Shown here piece by piece: positions 7,666 to 31,020 of a stretch of DNA of 53,431 nt. The position numbers and the translations under genes were made by a program. The notes beneath the pieces were generated by a model. It saw only the letters and a program-made list of their open reading frames with translations, was not told the DNA's origin and made no database searches. Numbering within the stretch: position 1 is the first letter of the stretch; each line of letters begins with the position of its first letter. Source of the stretch: Candidatus Kuenenia stuttgartensis (GTDB lineage Bacteria; Planctomycetota; Phycisphaerae; Sedimentisphaerales; CAMDDF01); the NCBI GenBank assembly GCA_945890885.1, contig CAMDDF010000001.1, positions 1-53,431 on the forward strand. Reading direction: 5' to 3'.

Positions 7666-8030
7666 GTTAAAAGCTTACATCAAATTAGCTATTTTATTGT
7701 TTTTAGAAATTTTTCAAACACAACATGTAGTATGCCAGAGTTTTCAGTTGCAAATCCATCCTCGTCCACAGTAGTGATATCGACTTTGGGGTGCAGTTAA
7801 CTTTAGAAAAGTTTACTTATTTCATAAGTTATTAATCTGTAACATGTTATAATTTCAAGATTTCAGGCAGTGCCTTTTAATAGCTGGTATTGCCGATTAT
7901 ACAGGACGTTGAAAATAAGATTTCTTTAAAAAACTTATTTTTTTATTTAATTCTCAGGCATACAATATATAGTAATGTAACATCCTTGTTATCGCAAAAA
8001 CGGAGCTTGTTTTATGGGGCTTTTTGCAAA

Positions 8031-9881
8031 TCAATACCATGTTGTTGTTTCAAGCCAATCCTGAGCAATTTTAACTATGTCAGAAAGACCGACATGGCCA
8101 TCACGATCAAAATCAGCAGGCAACGGGTTTTCGGTATCTTCAAGCCCGAAATCATTTGCCAGCACAGCGAAATCAGAAAAATCCACGATACCGTCATTGG
8201 TGGCATCGCAAAGCCTGCTCCAGATGGTACGGTTGCTGTAATGTCCCATGCTCGCTTGAGCTGTGCCGCCATAAGCCCCCATATTTATACGAAGATTACC
8301 ACTAAAAGCATTGTCTTCAAACACAAGAGTCTCATTGCCAATACTCATCCCAGGCATACCTGCATCAATGCATCTGCTGTTTGCAGTACCAAAGACTAAT
8401 TGCCCTGTTTCAATATCCCATTGGCCGCCCTTACTTTGGAGGTGGTAATCGCTACCTGCAATATCTGCACTGGAAAGCCACTGATTTGCAAAGACCAATA
8501 AATCAATCTCGTTAACTATACCATCTGCTGGTATCGAAATATCATATTTGTAACCGGCTTCAAAAGATTGCCATTTTGCCGCAAATTCGGCAAAGTCGCG
8601 AAAATCAACCTCGCCGCTAAAATCAAAATCGGCCGTCAAAACCATTGCTGGATTAACAAAACAAGGATCAACGTCAATGTTCCCAATCTGCCAGTCTAAC
8701 GTAGACCCATTCGAAACATATGCGTTCGCCAGTCCACCTTGAACGTCGCAATATGATACTGTAACTTCTGAGGGCCATAATGGATTTAGAAAAAGTGCTA
8801 TTTGAGGGCCCGACAATAATGCAGTATTACCCCATAAAACAGAGTTAATGAGACTCGCATTACTATAATGGCACGCGATTCCTCCTCCACCTCCAAGTTC
8901 ATTCGGATTATATCCGGCATGGTTATTAGCAATTGTACAATTAATGATTGATAAATTAGACGGATTGTCATTCCCACCACAATAAATTCCACCGCCAGAA
9001 ATTGAGGCATAGTTGCCGACAATGATGCAGTTTTTTATTATCATTTTGCTTTCCTCAACACCAATTCCTCCTCCCATATAAGCACCCGTTGAATTCCCAC
9101 TAATCTCGCAATTTAGCACTGTTGGGCTACTTCTAAAACAAGCAATACCAGCACCATACTCTGTGATAGAGTTGTTCGTAATACTACAATTAAAAATTAA
9201 AGGATTACTGTTGTCTTCACAGAAAATTCCACCACCATGAAGTGTACCTGAATTATTTTTAATTGTGCAATTGCTTATTGTTGGACTACTATTTGAGTCA
9301 CAGGCAATTCCTGCTCCAGCATAATTACTGTTATTAGAGATTATTGTACAGTTGGTTATCAAAGGATTGGCGTTGTTGTAGCAAGAAATGCCTCCTCCAT
9401 AACCTCCATGACTCCCCTCTGCTCCATTAAACTCAGCCATGTTATTGCTAACAATACAATTACGAATTGTCGGGCTGCAGTTTTCAACAAAGATACCTCC
9501 ACCCTCATCTACACTGCCATTCTTAATCGTAAGACCATCTAAGATAGAATTACTGTCTTCGCCAGTATGAAAGTAAAATCCCCTGTGAGAATTGAACCAA
9601 CCGCCATTGCAATCAATTATTGTATCATTCGGGTTGCCGGTCGCGCCACGAACGGTTATAGCTTTGCCGAGAAAGTCGATATCGCGATTGCCTGTGCCGG
9701 TGTATGTTCCCGATGAGATTATCACTTCATCGCCGTCGTTGCAGTCGTTGATAGCTGCCTGAATAGTTGCGTATTGACTTGGCACGTTTCTTATCTGTGC
9801 AATCGAAACCGATGTAAAGAACAAGGCGGCTATAAACCAGACCCCAAATATATTTTTCATCATCCACTCCCACTTACTCAA
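8031..9881 (-). CDS. secreted parallel-beta-helix repeat protein with dockerin-like Ca-binding motifs
   Basis: Signal peptide (MMKNIFGVWFIAALFFTSVSIAQI). More than 10 'N(C/S).I..N.a...GGGI' beta-helix turns. Dockerin/EF-hand-like segments DFSGEVDFRDFAEFAAKW, DATNDGIVDFSDFAVLANDFG and DFDRDGHVGLSDIVKIAQDW. Confidence 0.8.
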   Translation of the reverse strand: MSKWEWMMKNIFGVWFIAALFFTSVSIAQIRNVPSQYATIQAAINDCNDGDEVIISSGTYTGTGNRDIDFLGKAITVRGATGNPNDTIIDCNGGWFNSHRGFYFHTGEDSNSILDGLTIKNGSVDEGGGIFVENCSPTIRNCIVSNNMAEFNGAEGSHGGYGGGISCYNNANPLITNCTIISNNSNYAGAGIACDSNSSPTISNCTIKNNSGTLHGGGIFCEDNSNPLIFNCSITNNSITEYGAGIACFRSSPTVLNCEISGNSTGAYMGGGIGVEESKMIIKNCIIVGNYASISGGGIYCGGNDNPSNLSIINCTIANNHAGYNPNELGGGGGIACHYSNASLINSVLWGNTALLSGPQIALFLNPLWPSEVTVSYCDVQGGLANAYVSNGSTLDWQIGNIDVDPCFVNPAMVLTADFDFSGEVDFRDFAEFAAKWQSFEAGYKYDISIPADGIVNEIDLLVFANQWLSSADIAGSDYHLQSKGGQWDIETGQLVFGTANSRCIDAGMPGMSIGNETLVFEDNAFSGNLRINMGAYGGTAQASMGHYSNRTIWSRLCDATNDGIVDFSDFAVLANDFGLEDTENPLPADFDRDGHVGLSDIVKIAQDWLETTTWY

Positions 9882-10046
9882 TCAATAATAAAATAGCATT
9901 AGAAATCTATCCTGAGACAGACCCCATTGATTTTCGATGCATTCTAACGAGTTTTCAGGGAAAACTCAAGCAAAATCGCCTACTTTAACAATAGATTGGA
10001 TGAAAACCGCAAAATAAGTCGACAGGCTGTGATAATCAAACGGAAT

Positions 10047-11393
10047 TTATAGCTGTTTCACGATTAAATCGTATTCGTCTGTACCGATAACTTCAGCGGC
10101 AATGATATCGCCATGCTCAGCCTTAAAATTTTCTATCAGACAAAGGCTATCAATATCGGGCGCCTGGCCGAAATACCGCCCTGAAGCAAAGCCCTCTTCG
10201 CCAATAGCATCGACAATTACTTTAAGCTTTTGGCCTATATGGCCTTTGGCTTTTTCAAACGCGATAGACTGCTGGGCAAGCATTATCTGGTCAACACGGC
10301 TATGCTTAATCTCGTCCGCTATCTGGTTGGGCATATTTGACGCAGGAGTGTTTTTCTCCGGGCAATATGCAAAACAGCCGAGCATATCGAACTTGGCCCA
10401 CTTGATAAATTCGACAAGCTCATTAAATTGCACTTCGGTTTCGCCTGGGAAGCCAGTGATAACTGTTGTTCTGATTACGACATCTGGCATTGCTTTGCGA
10501 AGTTTTTCAATTACACTAACAGTTTTTTCCTTAGTGTCTGTCCGCTTCATCGCCTTTAGAATATCGTTGTTGATGTGTTGAATGGGAATATCAACATAAT
10601 TCAGTATTTTGTCGCTTGATGCGATTTTCTCTATCAGTTCATCATCGACGTTCGCTGGGTAAAGGTACATTATCCGCAGCCAGCAAAGGCCCGGCAGTTT
10701 TTCAAGTTCCTCAAGCAGCCTGACCAGCCCATTTTTAAGTCCGATGTCCTTGCCGTAGTTGCAACTATCCTGGGCGATAAGTATCAGCTCTTTTACCCCG
10801 CTTGAAACAAGTTCGCTGGCTTCTTTTAGGATCATATCCATAGGCTTGCTTCTGAAATTGCCGCGAATATCAGGAATAGTGCAAAAGCTGCATCTTCTGG
10901 AGCATCCTTCGCTAATGCGTAGAAATGCGTAATGGCTTGGGGTAATCAGGAGCCTTTGGCTGTCGTCGTTGATGAAATTATTTGACCCGCCAATATGTAT
11001 CTGCCTGCCTGGCTTTTTAAAGAGATTCTCGATAATCTCGGCTATTTTATCTCTGTGCGCCAGCCCGACAATGGCATCAATCGTTTTCACCTCGTCAAAA
11101 AGGTTTGTGCCTTCCCTCTGAACAAGGCATCCAGCAGCAACAATCTTTCTATCAGGCAACTTTTTCTTCCATTTAGCGGCATCGGTCAGCGCATCGATGG
11201 CTTCCTGTCTGGCCGGGGCAATAAAACCGCAGGTATTTATTACCATCACATCAGCATTTTCAATATCTTCAGTGATAAGCATCCCGTGATTTACAATCGA
11301 GGCGAGCATTTTTTCGCTGTCAACCATGTTTTTGGGACAACCAAGAGCCACAAAGCCCACAGTGATCGGAGTATTCTGTTGTTTCTTTTTCAT
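10047..11393 (-). CDS. rimO: ribosomal protein S12 methylthiotransferase
   Basis: VGFVALGCPKNMVDSEKM N-terminus, radical-SAM CSRRCSFC motif and a C-terminal TRAM domain. Confidence 0.9.
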   Translation of the reverse strand: MKKKQQNTPITVGFVALGCPKNMVDSEKMLASIVNHGMLITEDIENADVMVINTCGFIAPARQEAIDALTDAAKWKKKLPDRKIVAAGCLVQREGTNLFDEVKTIDAIVGLAHRDKIAEIIENLFKKPGRQIHIGGSNNFINDDSQRLLITPSHYAFLRISEGCSRRCSFCTIPDIRGNFRSKPMDMILKEASELVSSGVKELILIAQDSCNYGKDIGLKNGLVRLLEELEKLPGLCWLRIMYLYPANVDDELIEKIASSDKILNYVDIPIQHINNDILKAMKRTDTKEKTVSVIEKLRKAMPDVVIRTTVITGFPGETEVQFNELVEFIKWAKFDMLGCFAYCPEKNTPASNMPNQIADEIKHSRVDQIMLAQQSIAFEKAKGHIGQKLKVIVDAIGEEGFASGRYFGQAPDIDSLCLIENFKAEHGDIIAAEVIGTDEYDLIVKQL

Positions 11394-17852: not shown

Positions 17853-18046
17853 AACTGGCTTTTACAACGAATTACACAAATTTCCTCGAATTCTTTTTAA
17901 CACAGATTAACACTGATTTTTCTATTTTAAAAAAGATGGGGAAATGCTATAATCCTCTTCCGTGTTGGAATATCTTTCGCCCCATTGGGGGCTTGATTAG
18001 GATTAAAAATTTTAAAGTTTACACTTTTTTATGTCTGGGTGCCAAA

Positions 18047-19042
18047 ATGAGCAAAATTCCATTGGCTAAAAAAAAACAATACTGCTATCCGAAGCTTTCT
18101 ATTGCCGCATTAATTTTATCAGCAGCTTCTTTTCCCTTTTTTGGGATGCCCTTGCCTTATGCTATTGGTGCCGGTTTTGCAGGTATGATTAGATTTTTGC
18201 AAAAACCTCAAAAACAGGTTAGCGTCTTCCTATTTTGTTTTGTCGCAATGCTTTTGCCATTATTGATCAATTATTATATGGTAGGCTTTCAATCTTTTTT
18301 TAGTATTTTCAACCTAATTGTCTGTTTGGTATTTGTATTGTTGTTTTTTTGTCTTTCAGCTCCAGGGGAATCTCTAATTTCAGATATATTAATAGCAATT
18401 GTGGCTGGAATTCCGATATTAAAGTATCTATGGTTTTTAGTTGGCACTACCGTCCTTAAAGATGACATGACATGGCGAGTCTTCATGATTGCATATAGAA
18501 TGGGCTTGTCTTTTTTTATTCCCATAACAGTTCTTTTTTTGATAATCAGAATTATAAAACGGTTTTCTTTTGTTAGAGAAACCGTCATTCGTATTATTTT
18601 AATTTTAACAATCCCAGCAATGTTAACTCTATTTTCAAAAGAAAACAAATTAACAGATCGAGAGACCTTTTTGGATGGTTTTGCAAAATCTGTCAAAGAT
18701 GAAGTTGATTTTGTTTCTATTCAGAGTTGGTTGAATACGCAACAAATACCAGAAAAAGACCCGAACTCACAAGAAGATGGTCTTGTTTTGGTGCAACCTG
18801 AAAATCAACCTGATTGCATTAAGATATTATCTAATGGCGGGGAAATTGGTATAAGGTATGATTGGAATAAGAAGCAGTTTTATATAGGCAAAAAGAGGGA
18901 AATCTTGTTTCTTTTTTGTTTTTACTGGGGCCTATATATATCTTCAGATGTCTGTGAAAAACCAGATTGGGTGGATGGCAAAAATGGCGAATATTTATTT
19001 ATAACTCCATCAGTTTTTGTATGGTGCAAGTACTCAGGGTAA
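18047..19042 (+). CDS. hypothetical polytopic membrane protein with C-terminal soluble domain
   Basis: Start moved to the ATG at 18047. About 6 hydrophobic helices followed by ~120 soluble residues. No recognisable motif. Confidence 0.6.
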   Translation: MSKIPLAKKKQYCYPKLSIAALILSAASFPFFGMPLPYAIGAGFAGMIRFLQKPQKQVSVFLFCFVAMLLPLLINYYMVGFQSFFSIFNLIVCLVFVLLFFCLSAPGESLISDILIAIVAGIPILKYLWFLVGTTVLKDDMTWRVFMIAYRMGLSFFIPITVLFLIIRIIKRFSFVRETVIRIILILTIPAMLTLFSKENKLTDRETFLDGFAKSVKDEVDFVSIQSWLNTQQIPEKDPNSQEDGLVLVQPENQPDCIKILSNGGEIGIRYDWNKKQFYIGKKREILFLFCFYWGLYISSDVCEKPDWVDGKNGEYLFITPSVFVWCKYSG

Positions 19043-20945: not shown

Positions 20946-21123
20946 TTTAAATTCGCAAAGTACCGCTAATAAAGAACTTAGCGAAAGTGCTAAAAGTGAG
21001 AGGGTGCAGAATACGGTGCATAATCTGCAAATTTGCTCCGAATTACAACAAGTCATAACCGCTTGGCCTGAACTACCGGAGCATATCAAGGCTGCAATCA
21101 AATCATTGATACAAACTGCATAA
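20917..21123 (+). pseudogene. detached integrase 3' tail reading through the attL core
   Basis: The ORF MGKCARQDSNLNSQ...RVQNTVHNLQ...AWPELPEHIKAAIKSLIQTA crosses the att core in the same frame as the integrase (KCARQDSNL in both). A 20-nt block at 21001-21020 is identical to 47705-47724, inside the integrase. Confidence 0.5.
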
Positions 21124-21170
21124 AAAGTGGCTGAAGCAATCTAAGTACCGATTATCAATTAATCGTGCTG

Positions 21171-21368
21171 CTATGTCTCTTTTTCTGTCTGCTCAGGCTT
21201 CTTACAGGATTTTTTCATTATTTCCTCGCAACAGCACGTTCCCACCAGTGCCTTGATTACCAATAGTACTCCCAAAATGGTCAACACCATTCTTGCCCAG
21301 GAAGCATCCACCCAAGCAAAGACAATCACCAAAACCGCCAATACAACTCCACACCAACATTTGGACAT
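21171..21368 (-). CDS. small Cys-rich two-TM membrane protein
   Basis: MSKCWCGVVLAVLVIVFAWVD...MVLTILGVLLVIKALVGTCCCEE has two hydrophobic helices and a charged tail. No family recognised. Confidence 0.5.
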   Translation of the reverse strand: MSKCWCGVVLAVLVIVFAWVDASWARMVLTILGVLLVIKALVGTCCCEEIMKKSCKKPEQTEKET

Positions 21369-21481
21369 TTTTATCTCCTTTCAATCAAGTGTAAATTTGT
21401 ACGATATAAGTATTATCGGCTGAACCGAACCCAATACAGAAGGGAAAATGAAATCATTGGTATAAACCGCATAATAGCGGT

Positions 21482-21590
21482 TGTAGGGAAATTTCAAGCC
21501 CTACCTTATGCAGGGTGCTGTTTTATACCGGTCGAGAGCCGTTCGTCGATTCTAAGGGCTCAAAGTGGTCATTTAACCGGGGTTTGAGAG
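21482..21590. repeat. island intergenic repeat family 1, copy A
   Basis: Shares the exact block CGTTCGTCGATT (21540-21551 = 39175-39186) and ~65-70% identity over ~60 nt with copy C. Ends 15 nt from the orf160 stop. Confidence 0.6.
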
Positions 21591-21604
21591 ATTCTGTGTG
21601 GTGG

Positions 21605-22087
21605 TTACTGGCGTGGGCGTGCCGAAGTATCTACTAAACTCTCTATGTCTATTCGCAAATTAGCGAACCACTCTGTGCCGATGGTGCGGGGATATGGTCG
21701 GATCTGTTGCAAAACACAAGTTTCACCACGTTCAATGGCCTGCTGGTATGCTGAAACTTCCCTTTTAATAGCAGGGTCTTTCAAGTCGCAAGCATAGCCA
21801 CCTCGACGGACATGGGCGATGAACGCCTGCCATGCTGAATGCCGCCAGAATCGCTTGTGTAATTTGTCTCGGTGACAATTTCGACATAAAGCAAATAATG
21901 CTGGTTCTGTCCATATGTAAGGCTCGCCATAATCTTCATCATGATATTCAACGGCCACATCCGGGTCGCCGCATAACGCACACGGCCCTGTTGCTGGGGA
22001 CAATGTTCCCTTTGACATCAGACGCTTCGAAACTTGGAGTTTTTTGTTTCTCTCTATAGGACTATAACCGTTATACCAATTGAGCAT
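21605..22087 (-). CDS. hypothetical Cys/His (HNH-like zinc-finger) protein downstream of hsdR
   Basis: CALCG...EYHDEDY...LCRNCHRDKLHKRF. Same strand as hsdR, 113 nt downstream. Confidence 0.6.
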   Translation of the reverse strand: MLNWYNGYSPIERNKKLQVSKRLMSKGTLSPATGPCALCGDPDVAVEYHDEDYGEPYIWTEPALFALCRNCHRDKLHKRFWRHSAWQAFIAHVRRGGYACDLKDPAIKREVSAYQQAIERGETCVLQQIRPYPRTIGTEWFANLRIDIESLVDTSARPRQ

Positions 22088-22200
22088 ACTAAAAACCTCT
22101 CTGAAAGACGGGACTAATGAATGGGGCAGAGCATTATAGTTTTATACAAATCACCTATTTTTAAGCATATTTGTCATTGGCCTCGCTTTTTTATTCTGAT

Positions 22201-24600
22201 TTATGCCACAGCCTGTTGCTGATAAAGATATTTCTGGAATCCTGAGAACACCTTGCCAATCTCATCCGGTTTGCCCAGATCGGCTACGGCATCGGCAATG
22301 GAGTTGTGATACTTGAGCTGCAACAATGGCGTTAGTTTGTCTTGGTCAAGCTCCTCTACACCTACACTGACATAGTGTGACAGAACAAAATCGAGAAAGA
22401 CCTGCTGTTTGCTGTTAAAATGCGTGCTTATATCGACCTTGGCTTTAGCGGCACGTTCTTCACGGGTCAGCGGCATAAGGGCGTAGGCCACATGTGCCAG
22501 CACGTCGAAGATGTCGCTCTTTTCTGCATCGACGATCCTTTGCATTTCTGTAAGCTGGTCTTTGCCGAACCCTTTATCGGCCAGTCCATCCAGCAGCTTC
22601 TTTCGCGTTTCCGGTATGCTCCACAAGGTTCGAAGCTCCTCTTCATTCCTAAAGAACTCCGGCAGCTTACCGAAAAGCAGTTCCATAAACTGTTGTGCCG
22701 ACATCGGTGTCCCATCTGGATGCCAGAAGCTCGTTACCATCATGTGCTGGATAGTCCGTTCCTTGCCGTCAGCAAGTTTAACCTTCGCTCGCGTCCTCTT
22801 CTTGCACACGCAATTCAGCTTTCCGCAAACCGGACACGGCTCTTTCGGACATTCACACGGGCTCTTCCCGCAAATGGGACATGGTTGCGGAGGTGTTTTT
22901 TCACATTCGCATGGTTGGCAACCGCACTTAGAACACGTCTTTGACTCTTCCGGTTCTATTGGCTCTCCATCCCACTCAGGATCGCTGAAATGATGGTGCG
23001 CCTGCACAAAGTCATATATTGTAAAGTAATCCTTGCCATCATATAGTCGCGTGCCACGGCCAATGATTTGTTTGAACTCAATCATCGAATTGATAGGACG
23101 CATCAGCACAATGTTGCGAATATTGCGGGCATCCACACCGGTTGAGAGTTTCTGCGATGTAGTGAGGATAGTTGGGATAGTTTTCTCGTTGTCCTGGAAG
23201 TCGCGTAGGTGCTGCTCCCCCAGCGCTCCGTCGTTGGCTGTAACTCGCTGGCAGTAGTTTGGGTCTTTGATGGTCTTCATCTGATTGATGAGGTCACGCA
23301 CGGCCAGCGCATGGTCTTGCGTAGCACAAAAAACCAGCGTCTTCTCGTTCTGGTTGATTTGCTCCATGAAAATCTTCACACGGTGTGCTTCACGTTCCTT
23401 AATTTCGATAATCTTATTGAAGTCGGTTTCCGTGTATAATTTCCCGGTTTCAATCTCACCTTCAATCAGTTTGTCATCTGGTGTATAAACGTAGTCATCG
23501 AGCGTAGTGGAAATCTGCTTAATCTTAAACGGAGTGAGAAAGCCGTCATTGATGCCTTCCTTGAGCGAGTAGATATACACCGGCTCGCCGAAGTAGGCGT
23601 ATGTGTCCACGTTGTCCCTTCTTTTAGGAGTAGCGGTCATACCGAGTTGCACGGCAGGGGCAAAGTAGTCAAGGATACCACGCCAGTTGCTTTCGTTATT
23701 TGCTCCGCCGCGATGGCACTCATCAATAACAATGAAATCGAAAAATTCTGGCGGGTACTCGCCGAAATAAGGTGATGGGTTACCATCCTTTGGCGGGCCG
23801 CTCATAAATGTCTGGAAGATTGTGAAGAACAGACTGCCATTTTTTGGCACCTTGCCCTTTTTGCGAATGTCATCTGGCTCAATTCTTACCATCGCATCCT
23901 CGGGAAAAGCCGAGAAAGCGTTATATGCTTGGTTGGCCAGAATATTTCGGTCTGCAAGAAACAGGATACGTGGTCTGCGTGATGGTTCGCCGCTCAGGTT
24001 CCAGCGGCTATGAAACAACTTCCACGCAACTTGAAAGGCTATAAAAGTCTTGCCTGTGCCGGTGGCCAGCGTAAGAAGGATGCGTTGTTGTTCTACAGCA
24101 ATGGCCTCCATTACCCGTTCGACGGCGATGTCCTGATAGTATCTGCTTGGATGCGATCCACCCTTGTCCTCAAATGGCACGGTGGCGAAACGATCACGCC
24201 ATGCGTTAGCTTCGGCAAAGGTAATCGCCCAGAGTTCATCTGGTGTGGGATAACATTGCATTTCATTTTCTTTGCCCGTCTGCATATCGACGCCGTAGAT
24301 GCTCTGACCATTGGTGGCATAGGCAAATCGCACAGCTATCTTCGTTGCATAGTCCTTGGCCTGTCCCACGCCTTCAGTAAGTGGCTTGTCCCACGCCTTG
24401 GCTTCGACGACGGCCATTTTGGTGTTGCGATAGACCAGCACATAATCGGCAATAAGCGGTTTACCTCTTCGACCGAGTCCTTCGATGCGGCCCAGTGTGA
24501 TAGGATATTCACGCAAGATTCTGCTGCCATCAATTACTCCCCACCCCGCGGCTTTCAGTGCAGGGTCGATATATTCTGCTCTTGTTTCAGCTTCGTTCAT
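22201..24600 (-). CDS. hsdR: type I restriction enzyme R subunit (EcoEI-like C-terminal domain)
   Basis: MNEAETRAEYIDPALKAAGWG N-terminal nuclease domain, helicase motif I ATGTGKT, motif II DECHRGG, motif VI QIIGRGTR, and a C-terminal EcoEI_R_C-like region (DQLTEMQRIVDAEKSDIFDVLAHVAY). Confidence 0.95.
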   Translation of the reverse strand: MNEAETRAEYIDPALKAAGWGVIDGSRILREYPITLGRIEGLGRRGKPLIADYVLVYRNTKMAVVEAKAWDKPLTEGVGQAKDYATKIAVRFAYATNGQSIYGVDMQTGKENEMQCYPTPDELWAITFAEANAWRDRFATVPFEDKGGSHPSRYYQDIAVERVMEAIAVEQQRILLTLATGTGKTFIAFQVAWKLFHSRWNLSGEPSRRPRILFLADRNILANQAYNAFSAFPEDAMVRIEPDDIRKKGKVPKNGSLFFTIFQTFMSGPPKDGNPSPYFGEYPPEFFDFIVIDECHRGGANNESNWRGILDYFAPAVQLGMTATPKRRDNVDTYAYFGEPVYIYSLKEGINDGFLTPFKIKQISTTLDDYVYTPDDKLIEGEIETGKLYTETDFNKIIEIKEREAHRVKIFMEQINQNEKTLVFCATQDHALAVRDLINQMKTIKDPNYCQRVTANDGALGEQHLRDFQDNEKTIPTILTTSQKLSTGVDARNIRNIVLMRPINSMIEFKQIIGRGTRLYDGKDYFTIYDFVQAHHHFSDPEWDGEPIEPEESKTCSKCGCQPCECEKTPPQPCPICGKSPCECPKEPCPVCGKLNCVCKKRTRAKVKLADGKERTIQHMMVTSFWHPDGTPMSAQQFMELLFGKLPEFFRNEEELRTLWSIPETRKKLLDGLADKGFGKDQLTEMQRIVDAEKSDIFDVLAHVAYALMPLTREERAAKAKVDISTHFNSKQQVFLDFVLSHYVSVGVEELDQDKLTPLLQLKYHNSIADAVADLGKPDEIGKVFSGFQKYLYQQQAVA

Positions 24601-24608
24601 ATTTTTCC

Positions 24609-27011
24609 TTAGTCCTTGGTTAGAAACTTGATTGTCTCGGCAGCATCGGGAAATTGTTCAATAAGCTCCGGCTTATCCATAAAATGATAAGAGATAAACC
24701 GTGCTCCATCTCGCTCCAAACGATTAAAGAAATAGCAAGCATTCTTAGCTGATGGAGGTGAGGATCCGACTTGAATAAGAGGAATAAGTTTGAGTGCACG
24801 ATCTGAACCTTTCTTTGCCAGGTATAGTCTCTCGACATCAAGGCAAATCGACATTGTCCTTGATTCTTTCAGGAACTCACTGTTACTGCTCATCAAAATA
24901 GAAATCTCATTATCATAAACACCATTGCGATGGCGGCTATGAAGAGAATGAATCAATTGAGTCTCAGCCCATGTATCAGCAACTGCCTCACGAAACTTTT
25001 GCACTTCACCAAGGAGTTGTTCATTACGCATTTTTGCGTCTTCTTGTCCGACCACACCACCGTGACCGCCCCAGTCATTTCGCATTTTATTTGTTGTTGA
25101 AATGATCGTTGCCAGGTCCTTGCGGCTGAGAGCTTGGGGCAACGAAAGAGAGGGGTCAGCAAAAATATCTGCGCAAAGCGACCTGTCATTCTTCGCGTTA
25201 TCAGTTTTCTTTCCATCCTCAGAAAGCAACTTTCTTGTCTGCTTAACTAAATAATCTACCACCACCCTCCATGTCCCAAACGTTGCCCGTTGAAAACTCA
25301 GGTTTTGTGACTGCATTATTTCTTTAAGTTTATGTTTGTGCGATTCAAAAAAAGCGTCGTTAGAACTGAAAGCACTCAATAGAATGATGCCAATAAACTG
25401 CGTCGTTCCTTCAAAAAAATGTAAGAGGTGTTCATATTTTGTCTTAAAGTCCTGACTTGGTGCAGCCTGCCATGCACGAAGAATTGATGCGAGGGGAAAT
25501 GGAAGGCTTTCAATCCATTGTTCGAGACTTTCTATGGTGTGTAGTTTAATTCCGCCTGCCAGCCTTCCTGCCAGATAGCCGATCTGTTGGTCCACATTTG
25601 ACGCAGTTTTTGGGCTGGCCCAAAGCTCACGACTAAGTTCTGTAAGTTCATTTTGAAGAGCCTTTACCGTATTTTGCTCAGCAGTAATTTTCCCCTCAAT
25701 AGCCACCATTTCTCGCTGTGTTGACAGGTCAGGCACAAATATATTCATACCTCTTAATCTTAGCTTATTGAGCTTTGGAATCAAACCTGTCTTACTTTGG
25801 TCCATCTGCTGCTTTCCAAACTCAGAGTTGAGGAATCGAGTGACAAAGCGAGCGTTTGAACGGGCTGGATCAATTACAGCTTGAGCGTAATTTTGTGGCT
25901 TTAATTTAAAATCTTCACATGATTCTACAACATCACTATTACCTATAAGCGGAATAAAAATTGCATTTTCAAATGGCTCAAAAGCAAAACTGTCACCTTG
26001 CTGTCCTAAATTTATCGCTGTTGCAAGTTCTTCAAATTTTACTGATAATGCACCAAAACGCTTTTCTGCAAGTGCAAAGGCCTCCGCTACCCTAATTTCT
26101 GAGACACCTTTAAATGTCTCGGTAGAAACTAATTGGCCAAGTTCCAATGAGACGCCCTTACATTTTTTGCGTAAATTTCCTATAATCTGGTGGTTTTTGT
26201 TTGAGTCTGCGGATAACTGTGCCACAAACATTTGTGTTGATGGATTTCGTCGAACGATTATCAAGTAAGATGGAATGTTCGTATATGGCGCAAATGTCCC
26301 TGATGGAAGTGCCAAAGCTGCCTCAATCCCGAGGCCAATTTCGCTGAACTTATGAAAAACAGAACGAGGCGAAAAGAAAGAAGGTGTAACGACGAACAAG
26401 CCAACACCCAACGAACTCAAATGCCGCGAGGCAGCAACCAAAATAATGTTTCCTAAATCGTCACCCAATTCTATTTCTCCTCCCAGCGGGAGAGGATATA
26501 TTAAGGGGTAATCTGACTTTGCATTCATCGGCAGAATGCTTGCAATTACATCTAGTTCCATGTTTGCCACGTCAAGTGATTGCAGGGGAGCACCACATTG
26601 CCAATCCGCATCAGGTACTAGCATTTTTCCAAGAGCTGCTTCACCTTGGTTTGGCGTGAGAGCAATCGCTTTGTTCGCCTTGAAAGACTTGCACAAAATC
26701 CCAAGAAGGAATCCAGATCCAGCCCAAGGGTCACAGATTGTTTTTGGTGCAACGCCCTCAATAACTAATGAAAACACTTCAGTAAGCCATTGTGGAATAT
26801 GACAAAACATTCCCCCAGAACGACCTAATCTTGTTGCCATAAGAAGACCTAAAGCAGTCAAATCTGTGGCAGAAAACTGTACATTTTTATCTTTAAGAAG
26901 ATTAGCGAGCTCCTCAGGTCCTCTAAAATCAAAACCTCTGATTTTATCTATTACATTCCAAGCTTTCTCATTTATTAAGGGGCTTTCGTTTTTTTTCATG
27001 GTTAATCTCAC
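24609..27011 (-). CDS. 800-aa R-M-embedded protein: degenerate N6-MTase fold + HsdS-like TRD/coiled coil + C-terminal Rx5H (HEPN-like) domain
   Basis: 4-nt overlap with the hsdS stop and an 8-nt gap to the hsdR start. AdoMet motif I ICDPWAGSGFLLG (aa 92-104) and ALALPSGTFAPYTNIPSYLIIVRR are present, but the NPP[FY] position reads SILPMNAK. aa ~340-465 IFIPLIG...IFVPDLSTQREMVAIEGKITAEQNTVKALQNELTEL resembles half of an HsdS. aa 644-650 read RNDWGGH. Confidence 0.8.
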   Translation of the reverse strand: MRLTMKKNESPLINEKAWNVIDKIRGFDFRGPEELANLLKDKNVQFSATDLTALGLLMATRLGRSGGMFCHIPQWLTEVFSLVIEGVAPKTICDPWAGSGFLLGILCKSFKANKAIALTPNQGEAALGKMLVPDADWQCGAPLQSLDVANMELDVIASILPMNAKSDYPLIYPLPLGGEIELGDDLGNIILVAASRHLSSLGVGLFVVTPSFFSPRSVFHKFSEIGLGIEAALALPSGTFAPYTNIPSYLIIVRRNPSTQMFVAQLSADSNKNHQIIGNLRKKCKGVSLELGQLVSTETFKGVSEIRVAEAFALAEKRFGALSVKFEELATAINLGQQGDSFAFEPFENAIFIPLIGNSDVVESCEDFKLKPQNYAQAVIDPARSNARFVTRFLNSEFGKQQMDQSKTGLIPKLNKLRLRGMNIFVPDLSTQREMVAIEGKITAEQNTVKALQNELTELSRELWASPKTASNVDQQIGYLAGRLAGGIKLHTIESLEQWIESLPFPLASILRAWQAAPSQDFKTKYEHLLHFFEGTTQFIGIILLSAFSSNDAFFESHKHKLKEIMQSQNLSFQRATFGTWRVVVDYLVKQTRKLLSEDGKKTDNAKNDRSLCADIFADPSLSLPQALSRKDLATIISTTNKMRNDWGGHGGVVGQEDAKMRNEQLLGEVQKFREAVADTWAETQLIHSLHSRHRNGVYDNEISILMSSNSEFLKESRTMSICLDVERLYLAKKGSDRALKLIPLIQVGSSPPSAKNACYFFNRLERDGARFISYHFMDKPELIEQFPDAAETIKFLTKD

Positions 27012-28192
27012 AATTCTCCATTAAAGGCTTGGTGCAATAATGATTTCTTCAATGCATCTAACGCAGCGAGCTTCTTTTGGTAGATGGATTCGAGGCTTTG
27101 GGTTTCGGCGGCGAGTTCTTTAATTGTATCAACGGTCGTTTGCTGGTCAGCCAGAGATGGCAAAGCAATCGGGTACGGTTCGAGTGTTTCTTTGGTCAGC
27201 CCAATCTGGCCTGCAGCACGTTCTGAATGATAAATTATGTATTGCAGTATTGTGGAGTGCTTTAGAAAATAGAATAGAAAGTCCTTGGAGAGTTTTGATT
27301 CGTCTGGCACAGCCTTCATTAAAGCGACGTTGTATGCACCTTCCAATCCGCGTAGAATCTGAAAAAGTGGAGGTCCGTATCGTCCGATCATCACGTCATC
27401 AATATTGCAAAATCTCTTGGCCAGAGAACGAGGAATATAGACCAAATGTTTGTCGCTCTTGTAATCCCGAATTTGGATCAAGCGGATATTGTTGGGCGAG
27501 TGTGTCTTAGTGAAGACGGACTTGGGTGGTTGAGACCCGCCAACGAAGTTGCACACGTCACCGAGTGTTGTCTCTACCCATCCATCGCCGCGTTTAGTAA
27601 AGACGGAGTTGAGGTGGCTTTCGAAGATGGCACGGGCGTTTTGCAAATTCTTTTCGGCGTTGGCTTTGACGGTGGCGATACCCTCAAACGCTTCATCGAG
27701 AATCCCGACAATCCGCTGCTGCTCGGAAAGTGATTTCGGATAACTAATCTGAACTATCGAAATATCCTGCTGGTTGACGCTTGCCTGGTTAACTGACTGC
27801 TTGCACACACCACGCCAATAACCGCTCTGGAAGAGATACTTCATCGCGTGATTCAAATAGGCCGATGTCACCACGTCTTTGGGACGCATGAGCAACAGAT
27901 TCACACCATGGTAAACCGGTTCGTCGCTATTAAATGCAGCAGTTTTTCCAACGTGAACTGCGCTATTGATGTGACTGAAGAGTATGTCGCCATCTTGCAG
28001 GCGATACCGCTCCTTATCGCGCTCGCTCAATTCGGCATAGCCAACTCTTCCAAAATCGAAACTTGCATCCGAAATACTCTCAATGCGAGAAATCTTGTCA
28101 CCCTTGCCGCTCTTGTTTTGTTTGCAGTTAACGCCATTCCGAAGAACGGCCAAAACTTCACCCAATGTGCTTTTATGCCATCCATTCTTCAT
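27008..28192 (-). CDS. hsdS: type I R-M specificity subunit
   Basis: Two TRDs, each opening W..(S/T)LGEV/LGDV. Central conserved helix LSEQQRIVGILDEAFEGI and C-terminal LPSLADQQTTVDTIKEL...LKKSLLHQAF. Confidence 0.9.
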   Translation of the reverse strand: MKNGWHKSTLGEVLAVLRNGVNCKQNKSGKGDKISRIESISDASFDFGRVGYAELSERDKERYRLQDGDILFSHINSAVHVGKTAAFNSDEPVYHGVNLLLMRPKDVVTSAYLNHAMKYLFQSGYWRGVCKQSVNQASVNQQDISIVQISYPKSLSEQQRIVGILDEAFEGIATVKANAEKNLQNARAIFESHLNSVFTKRGDGWVETTLGDVCNFVGGSQPPKSVFTKTHSPNNIRLIQIRDYKSDKHLVYIPRSLAKRFCNIDDVMIGRYGPPLFQILRGLEGAYNVALMKAVPDESKLSKDFLFYFLKHSTILQYIIYHSERAAGQIGLTKETLEPYPIALPSLADQQTTVDTIKELAAETQSLESIYQKKLAALDALKKSLLHQAFNGEL

Positions 28193-29643
28193 AGCAGCGC
28201 CCGTATGTTCACCAACACTTCTGCACTTTCAGCATCCAGTTCGGCAATCTCGTCAATAATATCCAGCGGGCTAAGGTGGGTAATTTCCTCGCCACCATTC
28301 GGATTTTTACTCGATAGCTCGAAGGTTGTCTGATTAATGGTTTTGGCATCTACGCTCCAGCTCTTTGGTGAATCAGCGAAGGTTTTTTGCAACTCAATAA
28401 ATTCAGCAAGGTCGGCATCATTGAGCGAGTTGGTCTTGCCCATGTTACGGCCGGGATCAAGCTGGTAGTACCATGTTTTACGAGTTTTACTGCCTTTCTC
28501 AAAGAACAGTACCACGGTTTTCACACCTGCCCCCTGAAAGGTACCGCCGGGGCAGTCGAGCACGGTGTGCAGGTTGCAGCTTTCTAGAAGAAGTTTTCTT
28601 AAACTCACAGAGGCATTGTCAGTGTTGGAAAGGAAAGTGTTTTTGATAACCACGCCGCCGCGGCCGCCAGCCTTTAGCATCTTGATAAAGTGCTGGAGAA
28701 ACAAGAACGCCGTCTCGCCAGTACGGATGGGGAAATTTTGTTGTACTTCCTTGCGTTCCTTGCCGCCAAATGGTGGATTAGCAAGAATCACGTCGTAGCG
28801 GTCCTTTTCCTGAACGTCAGCAAGGTTCTCGGTGAGCGTGTTAGTATGCAGTATGTTCGGTGCTTCTATGCCATGCAATATCATATTCATAATCGCAATG
28901 ACGTAGGCAAGCGACTTCTTCTCCTTGCCGTAGAAGGTGCTGGTCTGGAGTGTGGTGAGGTCTTTGGTGGTGAGCTTCTTGCCCTTGGCCGTCAGATACT
29001 CGAACGCCTCGCACAAAAAGCCTGCCGAGCCAACTGCTCCATCGTAGATTTTTTCGCCTATGCGTGGCTGAACCACCTTTACGATTGCGCGGATAAGCGG
29101 GCGCGGGGTGTAATACTCGCCGCCATTGCGCCCGGCGTTGCCCATGTTCTTAATCTTGGCTTCATAGAGGTGCGAAAGCTCATGCTTTTCAGTCTGGGAG
29201 CCAAAGCGGAGTTCGTCAATGTGGTCAATAATCTCTCGCAGATTGTAGCCGCTCTGAATTCGGTTTTTGATTTCCCCGAATATCTCCCCGATTTTGTATT
29301 CGATGGTGTTTGGCCCGCTTGCTTTCTGTTTAAAGCTGTGCAGGTAGGGGAAGAGCTTCTGATTGACGAAGTCGCGGAGGTCGTCGCCGGTCAGGGCGTT
29401 AAGATCGGGCTTACCGTCCTTGCCCTTTGGCGCGGCCCATGTTTCCCAGCGGTATGGTTTATCGAGGATTTGTGTGTATTTCTTTCCCTCCATCTGAGCC
29501 ACCATAACCTTGTCGTGCTCTAGTGCATCGAGGTATTTCAGGAAGAGCATCCAGGATGTCTGCTCCGTGTAGTCCAGTTCGCTGGTGCAACCGGCATCTT
29601 TCCAGAGAACGTCGTCAATATTTTTGAAAGCTTGTTCGAACAT
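28189..29643 (-). CDS. hsdM: type I R-M DNA methyltransferase subunit
   Basis: Start moved to the ATG at 29643 (MFEQAFKNIDDVLW...), downstream of a predicted promoter. HsdM_N region, motif I YDGAVGSAGFL and catalytic ILANPPFGG. Confidence 0.95.
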   Translation of the reverse strand: MFEQAFKNIDDVLWKDAGCTSELDYTEQTSWMLFLKYLDALEHDKVMVAQMEGKKYTQILDKPYRWETWAAPKGKDGKPDLNALTGDDLRDFVNQKLFPYLHSFKQKASGPNTIEYKIGEIFGEIKNRIQSGYNLREIIDHIDELRFGSQTEKHELSHLYEAKIKNMGNAGRNGGEYYTPRPLIRAIVKVVQPRIGEKIYDGAVGSAGFLCEAFEYLTAKGKKLTTKDLTTLQTSTFYGKEKKSLAYVIAIMNMILHGIEAPNILHTNTLTENLADVQEKDRYDVILANPPFGGKERKEVQQNFPIRTGETAFLFLQHFIKMLKAGGRGGVVIKNTFLSNTDNASVSLRKLLLESCNLHTVLDCPGGTFQGAGVKTVVLFFEKGSKTRKTWYYQLDPGRNMGKTNSLNDADLAEFIELQKTFADSPKSWSVDAKTINQTTFELSSKNPNGGEEITHLSPLDIIDEIAELDAESAEVLVNIRALL

Positions 29644-29716
29644 GGGTACCTTATCCCTTAATATATTTTCTCTGTTATTTCCAGATAATATGCGAATCTC
29701 TATAGATATTTCGGAC

Positions 29717-29745
29717 ATTCTAACCAATCAAAGAGTCAAAAGCAA
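29717..29745 (-). promoter_or_regulatory. putative sigma70-type promoter of the hsdM operon
   Basis: Minus strand reads TTGCTT - 17 nt - TAGAAT, about 70 nt upstream of the 29643 ATG and downstream of the track's longer start. Confidence 0.45.
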
Positions 29746-29840
29746 ACCTCTTGTTTGTCCGCCTTATGTTCATAATGTGTACCATTTGTCATTAATACGA
29801 CCCGTATGTCATAAGTGCTTATAATAAAACAACTTAGATA

Positions 29841-29869
29841 TTGACAGCAAGATTGGTTTGTGTGATAAT
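29841..29869 (+). promoter_or_regulatory. near-consensus sigma70 promoter (extended -10), divergent from hsdM
   Basis: TTGACA (29841-46) - 17 nt - TGtGATAAT (29861-69). Confidence 0.55.
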
Positions 29870-29875
29870 ATTGGC

Positions 29876-30200
29876 ACGTTACAGAAAATCTGTTCTGTCG
29901 TGCTATGCCGACGATGGCCTGAGGGCAGCATAGCAGCATAAGGTCGGCGGCGTAATAGCTGACCATCCGGTTTAAGACGATAGGAGTTAATCCTACCTAT
30001 CGCAGGGCATAAAAACCCTTGCTCGATAAGGAACACGAAGCAGAGCAGTGAAGGACGCTCATAATGGTGCAATGTTCCTTTACCTGAACAGCCACACGCG
30101 ACGGCGACAAGCTGATAAAGGTATCCTATACGCTTAGGATACCATTGCGCCTCCGCTCTAGCTCAAAGCTGTTCCTCCGGCGCTGCCGCTAATACTACCT
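29876..30200 (+). ncRNA. candidate structured RNA / long structured leader (class unknown)
   Basis: Begins just downstream of the promoter. No ORF of 60 aa or more on this strand. Perfect stem-loops at 29881-29893, 29901-29935 (8 bp), 29978-30002 (7 bp), 30030-30078 (6 bp) and 30120-30143 (8 bp). The 3' end is undetermined. Confidence 0.3.
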
Positions 30201-30347
30201 ATGATAACTATCACTAAATCTAAACTTAGTCATAACAAGAAGCCACGTTGGTGGCTTAAGGGATACTCTCAGGAACAATCCCGCATAAAAGCCAAACAGT
30301 ACGAGAAACTGAGAGAAGAGATTGCCCGGTTCAAACAATCTCAGTAA
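30201..30347 (+). CDS. possible 48-aa basic peptide
   Basis: Hand-found: MITITKSKLSHNKKPRWWLKGYSQEQSRIKAKQYEKLREEIARFKQSQ. No convincing SD, so it may be non-coding. Confidence 0.2.
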   Translation: MITITKSKLSHNKKPRWWLKGYSQEQSRIKAKQYEKLREEIARFKQSQ

Positions 30348-30404
30348 TCTATAAATCATTTTTCCGTCATCCTCATATTCTCTGTAAAATCATTTGGGCA
30401 GATG

Positions 30405-30592
30405 GACTAATTTGGGATACCAAGGGGGGAAATTTGACCATCGCGGGTCCCAAAGGATTTTGTCCTGATGGCAATCCAACCAAACCCTCGTTAAATAGGG
30501 GTTTTAGAGATTTTTAAGCCTTTAAAACTTTAACCCTACCAAAGTACCTATTTCCGGTTATCGTTGATTTTATGAGCTTAAACCCCTCATGG
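30405..30592. repeat. island intergenic repeat family 1, copy B (mosaic, partly inverted)
   Basis: 30556-30592 is direct to copy C (TCGTTGATTTTATGAGCTTAAAC vs TCGTCGATTTTAGCGGCTTAAAC). 30405-30455 matches the reverse complement of 39053-39100. Confidence 0.5.
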
Positions 30593-30936
30593 TGCCAGTG
30601 TCCACAGAAAGCCTGATGCTGTACCGTAATAATAACCGGCTATACAACAATTCTGGACAACCGCAGATCATTTACATTTGTACGGAATAACCATAACTAA
30701 ATATAAACCGACCCACCATCCTCAGGTACACCCCCTTTATACACTCAAAAACCCTTTAATCCATAAATAACTGCATTTCCGTGTATATCACGCAGTTTTT
30801 ATCAAGCATATAAGATAGCACGATAGTCGTTAATCGTATGTGCATACTCCTAAAGCCTTTTTTGTGCTTCATTGCTGTGCCAGCATTTCATTAATCTTAA
30901 GTCATACAGGTCTATTTGCTATGGGTAATCATATAC

Positions 30937-30985
30937 TAAGGTACTTATATACGGTGTGTGTTGGGTTCTGCTGGCTTTAATAAAA
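30937..30985. repeat. island intergenic repeat family 2, copy 1
   Basis: TAAGGTACTTATATACGGTGTGTGTTGGGTTCTGCTGGCTTTAA vs 32603-32651 TAAGATACTTCTATATGGTGTGTGTTGGGCTCTACCGGCTTTAA (6 mismatches). Lies 3' of the thioesterase gene. Confidence 0.6.
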
Positions 30986-31020
30986 TTTAAGCCACTTGCT
31001 CATCATTGCGCAAAGATGGA

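Follow-up and report, generated by a model that had tools for sequence, protein, structure and literature searches.

What does an 800-residue protein do when its gene lies between the specificity gene hsdS and the restriction gene hsdR of a type I restriction-modification (R-M) operon? The protein in question, orf800, is encoded on the minus strand at positions 24609–27011 of a 53,431-nucleotide stretch of DNA from Candidatus Kuenenia stuttgartensis (GenBank assembly GCA_945890885.1, contig CAMDDF010000001.1), referred to here as the window. An earlier note, made from the sequence alone, had read it as a degenerate methylase joined to half of an HsdS subunit and a C-terminal HEPN-like nuclease, guarding the R-M complex against anti-restriction proteins. 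Type I R-M is one of the most frequent defences of bacteria, and one which phages routinely inactivate with DNA mimics. To our knowledge, few anti-anti-restriction backups are known, namely PrrC, PARIS, some retrons and Ronin, and those characterised are mostly enterobacterial. We find that orf800 is a real gene of a large, widespread and unannotated family. Taking domains and gene neighbourhoods together, its most likely role would be that of a built-in backup "suicide" effector of antiviral defence, and the form of this role that we tentatively favour, at a confidence just short of even, is a self-contained sensor-effector inherited together with a type I R-M system.

A widespread family without annotation

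A word-indexed search with orf800 returned 332 matches, of which the best 120 are full length (about 790 residues) at 58–71% identity; where their source names these 120 at all, the name is nearly always 'hypothetical protein', and none of them carries a Pfam domain. An exhaustive profile search over 1.84 billion cluster representatives extended the family to 2292 clusters (50% identity) at E ≤ 1e-3, with 866 at E ≤ 1e-30 and full-length members in most of the top 150, and a scan of one genome per species yielded 79 loci with a family member. The family spans nearly all bacterial phyla: carriers are found in Planctomycetota, Verrucomicrobiota, Acidobacteriota, Cyanobacteria, Bacteroidota, Bacillota, Chloroflexota, Proteobacteria and others, as well as in two archaeal metagenome-assembled genomes (MAGs), and cultured carriers include Legionella resiliens, Mesobacillus maritimus, Sinobaca qinghaiensis and strains of Chryseobacterium and Pedobacter. 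Since a scan of 2.9 million viral contigs produced a single relative, the family is not phage-borne.

Neither the whole of orf800 nor either of its halves matched anything above threshold in Pfam, NCBIfam or the PDB sequences, no model of the family was found in Pfam, NCBIfam or PADLOC, and a literature search for this architecture found no description. The earlier note knew of no family in which methylase-like, target-recognition and HEPN-like parts are fused, and across the libraries and literature that we searched this still holds, so that the fusion of a pseudo-methylase and recognition domain to a HEPN-like domain would, from its sequence, be a new architecture. The strings quoted in the earlier note, ICDPWAGSGFLLG, SILPMNAK, ALALPSGTFAPYTNIPSYLIIVRR, IFVPDLSTQREMVAIEGKI and MRNDWGGHGG, all occur in the translation where it had placed them. 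Conservation was assessed in an alignment of 120 full-length proteins, orf800 and 119 relatives with a mean identity of 31.5%, to which all counts out of 120 given below refer.

A methylase fold without its catalytic motif

The full-length AF2 model of orf800 is mediocre (pLDDT 66.8), with residues ~100–470 at 70–90, and was used for the N-terminal modules only. Its secondary structure begins with a helical region (residues 1–85; 26757–27011), the least conserved part of the protein, followed by a predicted degenerate gamma-class N6-adenine methyltransferase fold, or pseudo-methylase (residues 86–300; 26112–26756). In a Foldseek search of the PDB the best match is 7eew_A (E 1.1e-10), a methyltransferase-specificity (M-S) fusion methylase from V. 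vulnificus that was solved with the DNA mimic Ocr, and the next are the HsdM structure 5ybb_A (E 1.2e-6), M.TaqI, CamA and M.BseCI, with 2adm_A at E 1.2e-6. All of these matches are gamma-class N6-adenine methylases, several of them with a recognition domain in the same chain. At the sequence level, the PADLOC model of mad2, the N6-methylase of the MADS system, matches residues 56–269 (E 4.3e-5), and the Pfam N6_Mtase model scores 14.7 bits on orf800, below its gathering cut-off of 20.4.

The class I AdoMet-methyltransferase fold comes with its AdoMet-binding motif I, ICDPWAGSGFLLG (residues 92–104; 26700–26738), which is retained in the clade of the window and kept in most of the aligned proteins (D94 in 110, P95 in 108 and G100 in 109 of the 120). 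Motif IV is degenerate: it reads SILPMNAK (residues 158–165; 26517–26540), with I159-L160-P161-M162 where NPPF is expected, and [NDS]PP[FYW] occurs nowhere in orf800. Across the alignment the position of the catalytic N/D is held by C (27), I (13), V (12), S (11), A (10), F (10) or N (8); among 70 locus-encoded proteins that were compared, 62 have a non-polar residue there, and the motif II acid is present in only 17 of the 120. The proposal of an AdoMet-methyltransferase fold with a lost motif IV is thus borne out by the match to 7eew_A, by ILPM in place of NPPF and by the homologues. The N-terminal part appears to be a catalytically dead methylase derivative, with motif IV degenerate in nearly the whole family. 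A sensor of AdoMet levels was considered as the main idea and rejected, given the rarity of the motif II acid and the loss of motif I in one clade.

The clades differ in how far this decay has gone. The window clade combines DPWAGSG with ILPM, a mostly solitary Bacteroidota clade has lost the glycine loop of motif I too (DPWLTPS with FPPF), and a few clades retain DPxCGxG with NPPF, DPPL or EPPF. Two relatives of 965–981 residues (P0170 and P0195) have a bona fide N6_Mtase domain (E 1e-48 to 1e-51) with NPPF, together with the same recognition and C-terminal domains, and another (P0226) retains a bona fide HsdM_N domain at its N-terminus. As NPPF-intact and HsdM_N-bearing relatives are extant, the family descends from an active M-S fusion, with repeated loss of catalysis.

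A further relative, on plasmid NZ_CP108260.1 of Streptomyces sp. NBC_00055 (L086:7507-10338), is a 943-residue 'N-6 DNA methylase' (WP_327425440) whose similarity to orf800 (27.5% identity, E 1e-42) covers the recognition and C-terminal domains. Its gene stands solitary on the linear plasmid, with a Pycsar effector gene at a distance of a few kb. By annotation and size the protein resembles the two NPPF-intact proteins, and it may represent the ancestral, catalytically active form.

A recognition-like domain that does not vary

The methylase part is followed by a single target-recognition-like domain of the HsdS type (residues 326–428; 25728–26036) and then by an HsdS-like PxLxxQ motif leading into a helical hairpin, presumably a coiled coil (residues 429–491; 25539–25727), for which AF2 predicts helices at 429–465 and 467–491. 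P427 and Q432 are conserved in at least 97% of the alignment. The PADLOC model Specificity_I matches residues 356–461 (E 1.2e-7) and more than 20 further S models match as well, in agreement with the earlier description of this region as one half of an HsdS. The hallmark of HsdS, a pair of hypervariable recognition domains, is absent: orf800 has one such domain, and it is conserved. Mean pairwise identity within the family is 19% for the N-terminal helices, 24% for the coiled coil and 28% for the methylase core, against 35% for the recognition-like domain, 35.5% for the C-terminal helical lobe and 35% for the C-terminal beta lobe, which puts the recognition-like domain among the best conserved of the family.

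A comparison of seven closely related operons is instructive here. Identity is 78% for HsdM, 71% for HsdR, 69% for orf800 and 68% for its recognition-like domain, against 33% for HsdS. From these values orf800 appears to be co-inherited with the type I system, its identity being close to that of HsdM and HsdR. As the recognition-like domain stays fixed while HsdS varies, it is not an alternative specificity subunit, a candidate that we rejected on account of this conservation and the lack of co-variation with HsdS; nor has it any meaningful similarity to the HsdS of its own operon. Its conservation suggests that it binds something constant.

A C-terminal domain with an invariant R-N-H motif

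The best-conserved positions of the whole protein lie in its last ~310 residues. Modelled alone from 36 diverged sequences, residues 492–800 give a confident AF2 structure (pLDDT 93.7, pTM 0.93) with two lobes: an all-alpha subdomain of ~9 helices, which would hold the candidate HEPN-like active site (residues 492–683; 24963–25538), and a beta-rich subdomain without a family match (residues 684–800; 24612–24962), whose lobe comprises residues 684–785, with strands at local residues 193–294, plus a terminal helix. The motif R644-N645-D-W-G-G-H650 (25062–25082, as the earlier note had it) lies in the alpha lobe; in the model R644 and N645 end one helix and H650 sits in the next loop, after which a long helix follows.

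R644 and H650 are each present in 120 of 120 proteins, far beyond chance at the mean identity of the alignment, so the conservation check proposed in the earlier note came out clearly positive; N645 and G652 follow with 119 each. The spacing from R to H is five residues in most members and four in others (RNRRAH, RNDKAH, RNYHAH, RNDSSH). W499, P506, E534, S546, W581 and R593 are conserved in at least 97% of the proteins, and the beta lobe has conserved positions of its own at F713, P744, A758-C759-Y760-F761 and S774-Y775-H776. HEPN RNases are defined at the sequence level by an Rx4-6H motif whose R is directly followed by a polar residue, N, D or H (PMC3710099), and the family of orf800 has precisely this arrangement.

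Sub-threshold profile matches point in the same direction. Across the motif, the Pfam model HEPN_Swt1 matches 2 of 36 members and 3 of 9 members with the Rx4H spacing (5 of 45 in all), the latter at E 0.017–0.16 over profile positions 44–112 of 115; Abi_2 matches one of the nine Rx4H members (E 0.027, positions 131–181 of 184), and PADLOC CARF_HEPN gave one sub-threshold match over the motif (E 0.012). The Pfam E-values count false matches over all 24,736 models. The remaining sub-threshold matches are scattered and unrelated, Peptidase_M61 (3 of 36) being the only one found in more than one member. Since the repeated matches fall on two models of a single HEPN clade, chance is very unlikely as their cause, with an estimate below 1e-3 that allows for the relatedness of the queries. 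A profile search of the PDB sequences with the C-terminal domain was empty, a local hidden Markov model of the helical lobe found no relative outside the family among 3471 open reading frames (ORFs) of the fetched loci, and no known DNase motif or fold was detected in orf800 with Pfam or Foldseek. The helical lobe thus carries a candidate active site of the HEPN-like RNase type.

Genomic context of the family

Three divergent homologues that were looked up directly all lie in hsdM-hsdS-X-hsdR operons (X being the family gene) from unrelated phyla. For a broader view, neighbours were classified by phmmer and BLAST clustering at the 48 loci of the unbiased genome scan with full flanks, for which we required no less than 3.5 kb on the upstream and 3 kb on the downstream side. 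hsd genes occur in the flanks of 30 of these loci: 19 have them directly adjacent on the same strand (S-X-R at 6, S-X at 5, X-R at 4 and R-X at 4), and 11 have them nearby and non-adjacent. At least two families are represented among the partner HsdR proteins, one of ~790 residues with an EcoEI_R_C domain and one of ~1000 residues, of which one scanned example matches PADLOC REase_I. The tabulation of type I flanks that the earlier note had called for therefore speaks for its expectation of an association with R-M genes. This association is far above chance yet not obligate, for 18 of the 48 loci have no hsd gene in the flank. Among them is a close relative with full flanks (L023, 62% identity); another close relative (L007, 75% identity) also lacks an hsd gene, with only 3 kb of its upstream flank covered. 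At the three solitary loci that were checked, other defence genes lie near the family member: Gabija GajA/GajB (L080), PDC-M26A (L041) and PDC-S01 (L050).

The position between hsdS and hsdR is a general cargo site, as the same slot of related operons also holds GmrSD, Fic/DOC, DUF3644 (a HEPN family) and DUF4268. Such other cargo was seen in L010, L019, L034, L040, L042, L043, L056, L081 and others, sometimes beside a family protein. In one relative (P0151) DUF5655 lies N-terminal to the family C-domain, and in a related operon (L042:14430-16574) a GmrSD protein has it at the C-terminus; it appears to be an accessory module common to both settings.

A few loci show further arrangements. Pedobacter sp. 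UYP30 encodes two 766-residue paralogues on the same strand with a 490-aa gene between them (L063:3882-6182 and 7907-10207), and there are no hsd genes near either. In a Gemmatimonadales MAG (L083:6521-10924) an HsdR-like sequence and a full-length family protein share one 1467-aa ORF; this reflects either a genuine fusion to HsdR or else a frameshift or an artefact of assembly. Two Nitrospira loci (L003/L004:4678-5366) carry an MNT/HepT toxin-antitoxin pair (NTP_transf_2 plus a HepT-like HEPN) directly upstream of hsdM.

The operon in the window

The five ORFs, their order and their minus-strand orientation are as first described, and Pfam confirms hsdM, hsdS and hsdR. The operon runs hsdM-hsdS-orf800-hsdR with tight spacing. 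HsdM (28189–29643; 484 residues) has HsdM_N and N6_Mtase domains (E 3.6e-60) with NPPF intact, HsdS (27008–28192; 394 residues) matches Methylase_S in two stretches (E 5e-22), and HsdR (22201–24600; 799 residues) has ResIII (E 1.4e-35) and an EcoEI-type C-terminus (EcoEI_R_C, E 5.3e-33). These lengths agree with the public gene calls on the metagenome contig (ENA ERZ27280308, k141_2633201), which give HsdM 484, HsdS 394, the middle gene 796 and HsdR 799 residues; the longest ORF for hsdM extends over 28189–29727, with its upstream end at a TTG at 29727.

Overlaps had been claimed at both hsdS junctions. That with hsdM stands, at 4 nt; that with orf800, also 4 nt, holds only if orf800 starts at the GTG at 27011, which yields 800 residues. 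The ATG at 26999 (M5, 12 nt downstream), which leaves 796 residues, is more likely the start because it matches both the public call and the N-termini of the homologues, and it turns the overlap into a gap of 8 nt. Between the orf800 stop and the ATG of hsdR there are 8 nt, as claimed, with an AAGGA overlapping the stop codon, and orf800 is tightly coupled into the operon with either start. Promoter-like and terminator-like sites are no commoner within the operon than in shuffled sequences, which is consistent with a single transcription unit, not proof of one.

Downstream of hsdR lies orf160 (21605–22087, minus strand), a Cys/His-rich ORF (CxxC ... CxxCH) that matched no family in Pfam, PADLOC or NCBIfam. 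It was rejected as a component, since it is not kept downstream of hsdR in related operons, and is probably outside the system. On the other side, the ~1.3 kb upstream of hsdM (29728–31020) hold a single ORF of 87 residues without a family and no Rfam match, and may have a promoter or regulatory role or else be the remnant of a decayed gene. In its composition the hsd operon stands out as an island, with a GC content of 0.465–0.479 (window positions 21000–30000) against 0.38–0.42 in the flanks (17–20 kb and 30–36 kb), a contrast which suggests that the four-gene unit was acquired horizontally. A plus-strand ORF of 368 residues without a Pfam family (17936–19042), which has a CbiMQO transporter on one side and an MFS_3 gene on the other, falls where the GC content of the neighbourhood is lowest (0.384).

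A possible mechanism

How might such a protein act? In the reading that we favour, the first ~490 residues, a derivative of a fusion of HsdM with half an HsdS, retain the fold of the methylase, a single recognition domain and the coiled coil of HsdS; having lost motif IV, and in some clades the AdoMet loop too, this part would serve as a scaffold for binding and sensing, not as an enzyme. Such a sensor would have the shape of the DNA-binding face of a type I methylase. The most likely trigger would be an occupation of the DNA groove of the pseudo-methylase, or the displacement of DNA from it, and DNA-mimic anti-restriction proteins of the Ocr/ArdA type could act in this way, following a decoy logic like that of Ronin. 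The coiled coil would mediate dimerisation, as in half-S fusions, and would pass the signal on to a pair of C-terminal domains in the homodimer. The effector, the two-lobed domain of the last ~310 residues with its invariant R-N-x(3-4)-H-G-G of the HEPN RNase type on the helical lobe, may be a metal-independent RNase that is normally off. Its activation would stop translation once the restriction arm has failed, leading to abortive infection or dormancy. RNase chemistry, dimerisation, trigger and abortive outcome are what we infer from this architecture.

An autonomous sensor-effector is preferred over an obligate Hsd subunit because the association with R-M is strong but non-obligate: as 18 of 48 loci, close relatives included, have no hsd gene nearby, the protein must be able to hold itself in check.

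Several observations weigh against this interpretation. The HEPN fold predicted by the earlier note for the C-terminal domain was not recovered: in Foldseek searches, the best match in the PDB has an E-value of 0.034 and a probability of 0.16, with no HEPN protein in the top 50, and the viral structures of BFVD gave no significant neighbour, so that at the sensitivity used the modelled domain is without a known structural neighbour. In the model, the lobe of ~9 helices is larger than the canonical four-helix HEPN. No HEPN family of Pfam reaches its cut-off (HEPN_Swt1 at best 15.9 against 27.5 bits, Abi_2 15.2 against 25.6), and hhalign of the helical lobe against shallow profiles of DUF3644 and HepT, built from neighbour genes, gave probabilities below 1%. 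The second usual HEPN feature, Ex3[KR], is absent; E534, which is 98% conserved and located on the first long helix, sits in FFEAxAEF. Finally, the fixed recognition domain would fit the binding of one fixed nucleic-acid feature equally well.

In its most specific form, the favoured reading would make the family a single-chain decoy guard, in which a dead mimic of HsdM-HsdS offers a fake groove and Ocr or ArdA, on filling it, fires a HEPN-like RNase domain of a new fold. With this much detail, the proposal is possible and rests on the unlikely side.

Alternative readings

The guard first proposed for orf800 was of a stricter, PrrC-like kind, in which the protein joins or replaces HsdM or HsdS in the HsdM2S1R2 complex, is held latent there and is freed when an inhibitor attacks the complex. 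Its gene does occupy the PrrC slot, its subunit-like modules could use the HsdM-HsdS and HsdM-HsdR interfaces, and it diverges at the rate of HsdM and HsdR. Against this stand the 18 full-flank loci without an hsd gene within about 10 kb, including that of the relative with 62% identity: copies without hsd genes nearby cannot depend on Hsd proteins for silencing, and a slot that also takes unrelated cargo (GmrSD, Fic/DOC, DUF3644, DUF4268) implies no complex by position alone. We therefore consider the strict version unlikely.

We think it improbable, too, that orf800 is a nuclease directed by nucleic acid, whose pseudo-methylase and fixed recognition domain would read a constant feature of DNA or RNA, with the C-terminal domain cutting at or near it. 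The feature could be a modified base flipped into the dead catalytic pocket, as in a type IV-like enzyme, or a fixed sequence. The recognition domain is indeed conserved as in methylases of fixed specificity, hydrophobic residues take the place of the catalytic N/D, type IV enzymes (GmrSD) share the operon slot, and the solitary NPPF-intact versions look like single-chain methylase-plus-effector enzymes. However, the searches for a known DNase motif or fold came back empty, and the invariant motif is of the RNase (HEPN) type.

A non-catalytic accessory or regulator, be it an assembly factor, a restriction-alleviation factor or an alternative scaffold, would agree with the pseudo-enzyme N-terminus and with the lack of a structural match to a nuclease, the R..H pair then being structural or ligand-binding. 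This is very unlikely, as the near-invariant polar cluster (E534, S546, R593, R644, N645, H650, C759, Y760, S774, Y775, H776) is typical of an active site, and the solitary copies in defence islands lack a neighbouring type I enzyme on which they could act as regulators. Hardly credible is a second active fusion of methyltransferase and specificity parts that would serve as an additional modification enzyme; one might cite for it the methylase fold, motif I and the distant NPPF relatives. It was rejected on motif IV, which reads ILPM and is mostly non-polar at its catalytic position, the more so as the motif II acid is mostly absent, N6_Mtase stays below threshold and the invariant C-terminal domain of 310 residues would be left unexplained.

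Relation to known systems

A close precedent for the self-contained sensor-effector that we favour is PrrC, encoded at the EcoprrI type Ic locus by a gene that separates hsdS from hsdR; the protein is held latent by EcoprrI and released by Stp. With PrrC, orf800 shares this slot, and with PrrC/RloC a C-terminal Rx4-6H motif and a presumed role as an RNA-targeting second line of defence. In contrast to PrrC and RloC, which have an N-terminal ABC-ATPase, orf800 has a pseudo-methylase and recognition domain and matched no ATPase family; the proteins have no sequence similarity, and the C-terminal domain of orf800, ~310 residues with an extra beta lobe, is unconfirmed as a HEPN fold. About a third of the family is not linked to R-M, in which it resembles RloC rather than PrrC.

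The 2013 census of HEPN domains counted at least 16 HEPN clades embedded in R-M operons, fused to restriction endonucleases (REases), helicases and ATPases, not to methylases. As so many R-M-linked clades are already established, the backup principle itself is known. Of these, the Abi2/AbiD/AbiF and Swt1-like HEPN proteins, which are associated with R-M and DUF499 (Hma/BREX-related), are likewise R-M-embedded and form the only clade with recurrent sub-threshold matches to the motif region of orf800; however, orf800 scores under their curated cut-offs, and the fusions known for these HEPN domains are with ATPases, helicases and REases. HEPN domains fused to DUF499 ATPases appear in a 2026 survey of BREX-related systems, which lists nothing resembling orf800.

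For the sensor, Ronin offers a parallel. It uses HsdMS as a decoy for Ocr/ArdA, and a methylase active-site mutant still works. What it would have in common with orf800 is the use of type I methylase and specificity parts as an anti-restriction sensor. It differs in having a separate and apparently intact HsdM and HsdS plus a small membrane toxin, the 61-aa RonA, usually without hsdR, whereas orf800 would unite sensor and effector in one chain with a naturally dead methylase, usually has a complete hsdMSR beside it and no small transmembrane gene. The M-S fusion of V. vulnificus YJ016 (7eew), to which the first ~490 residues are structurally most similar, likewise combines a methylase and a single recognition domain in one chain, but it is active as a methylase, lacks a C-terminal effector domain and has 15% sequence identity to orf800.

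What would the family mean for bacterial defence? If our reading is confirmed, orf800 would be a new defence gene for annotation pipelines and a clear case of exaptation from enzyme to sensor, with intact-NPPF relatives still extant, and its confidently modelled C-terminal domain without a structural neighbour would be worth solving. Being abundant, built as a single chain and equipped with an effector domain of novel structure, the family is an appealing experimental target, and since cultured carriers exist the hypothesis is directly testable. Should the groove indeed act as a decoy, the family would provide the first methylase-derived sensor fused to a HEPN effector, and a general, cross-phylum answer to the question of how type I systems punish anti-restriction.

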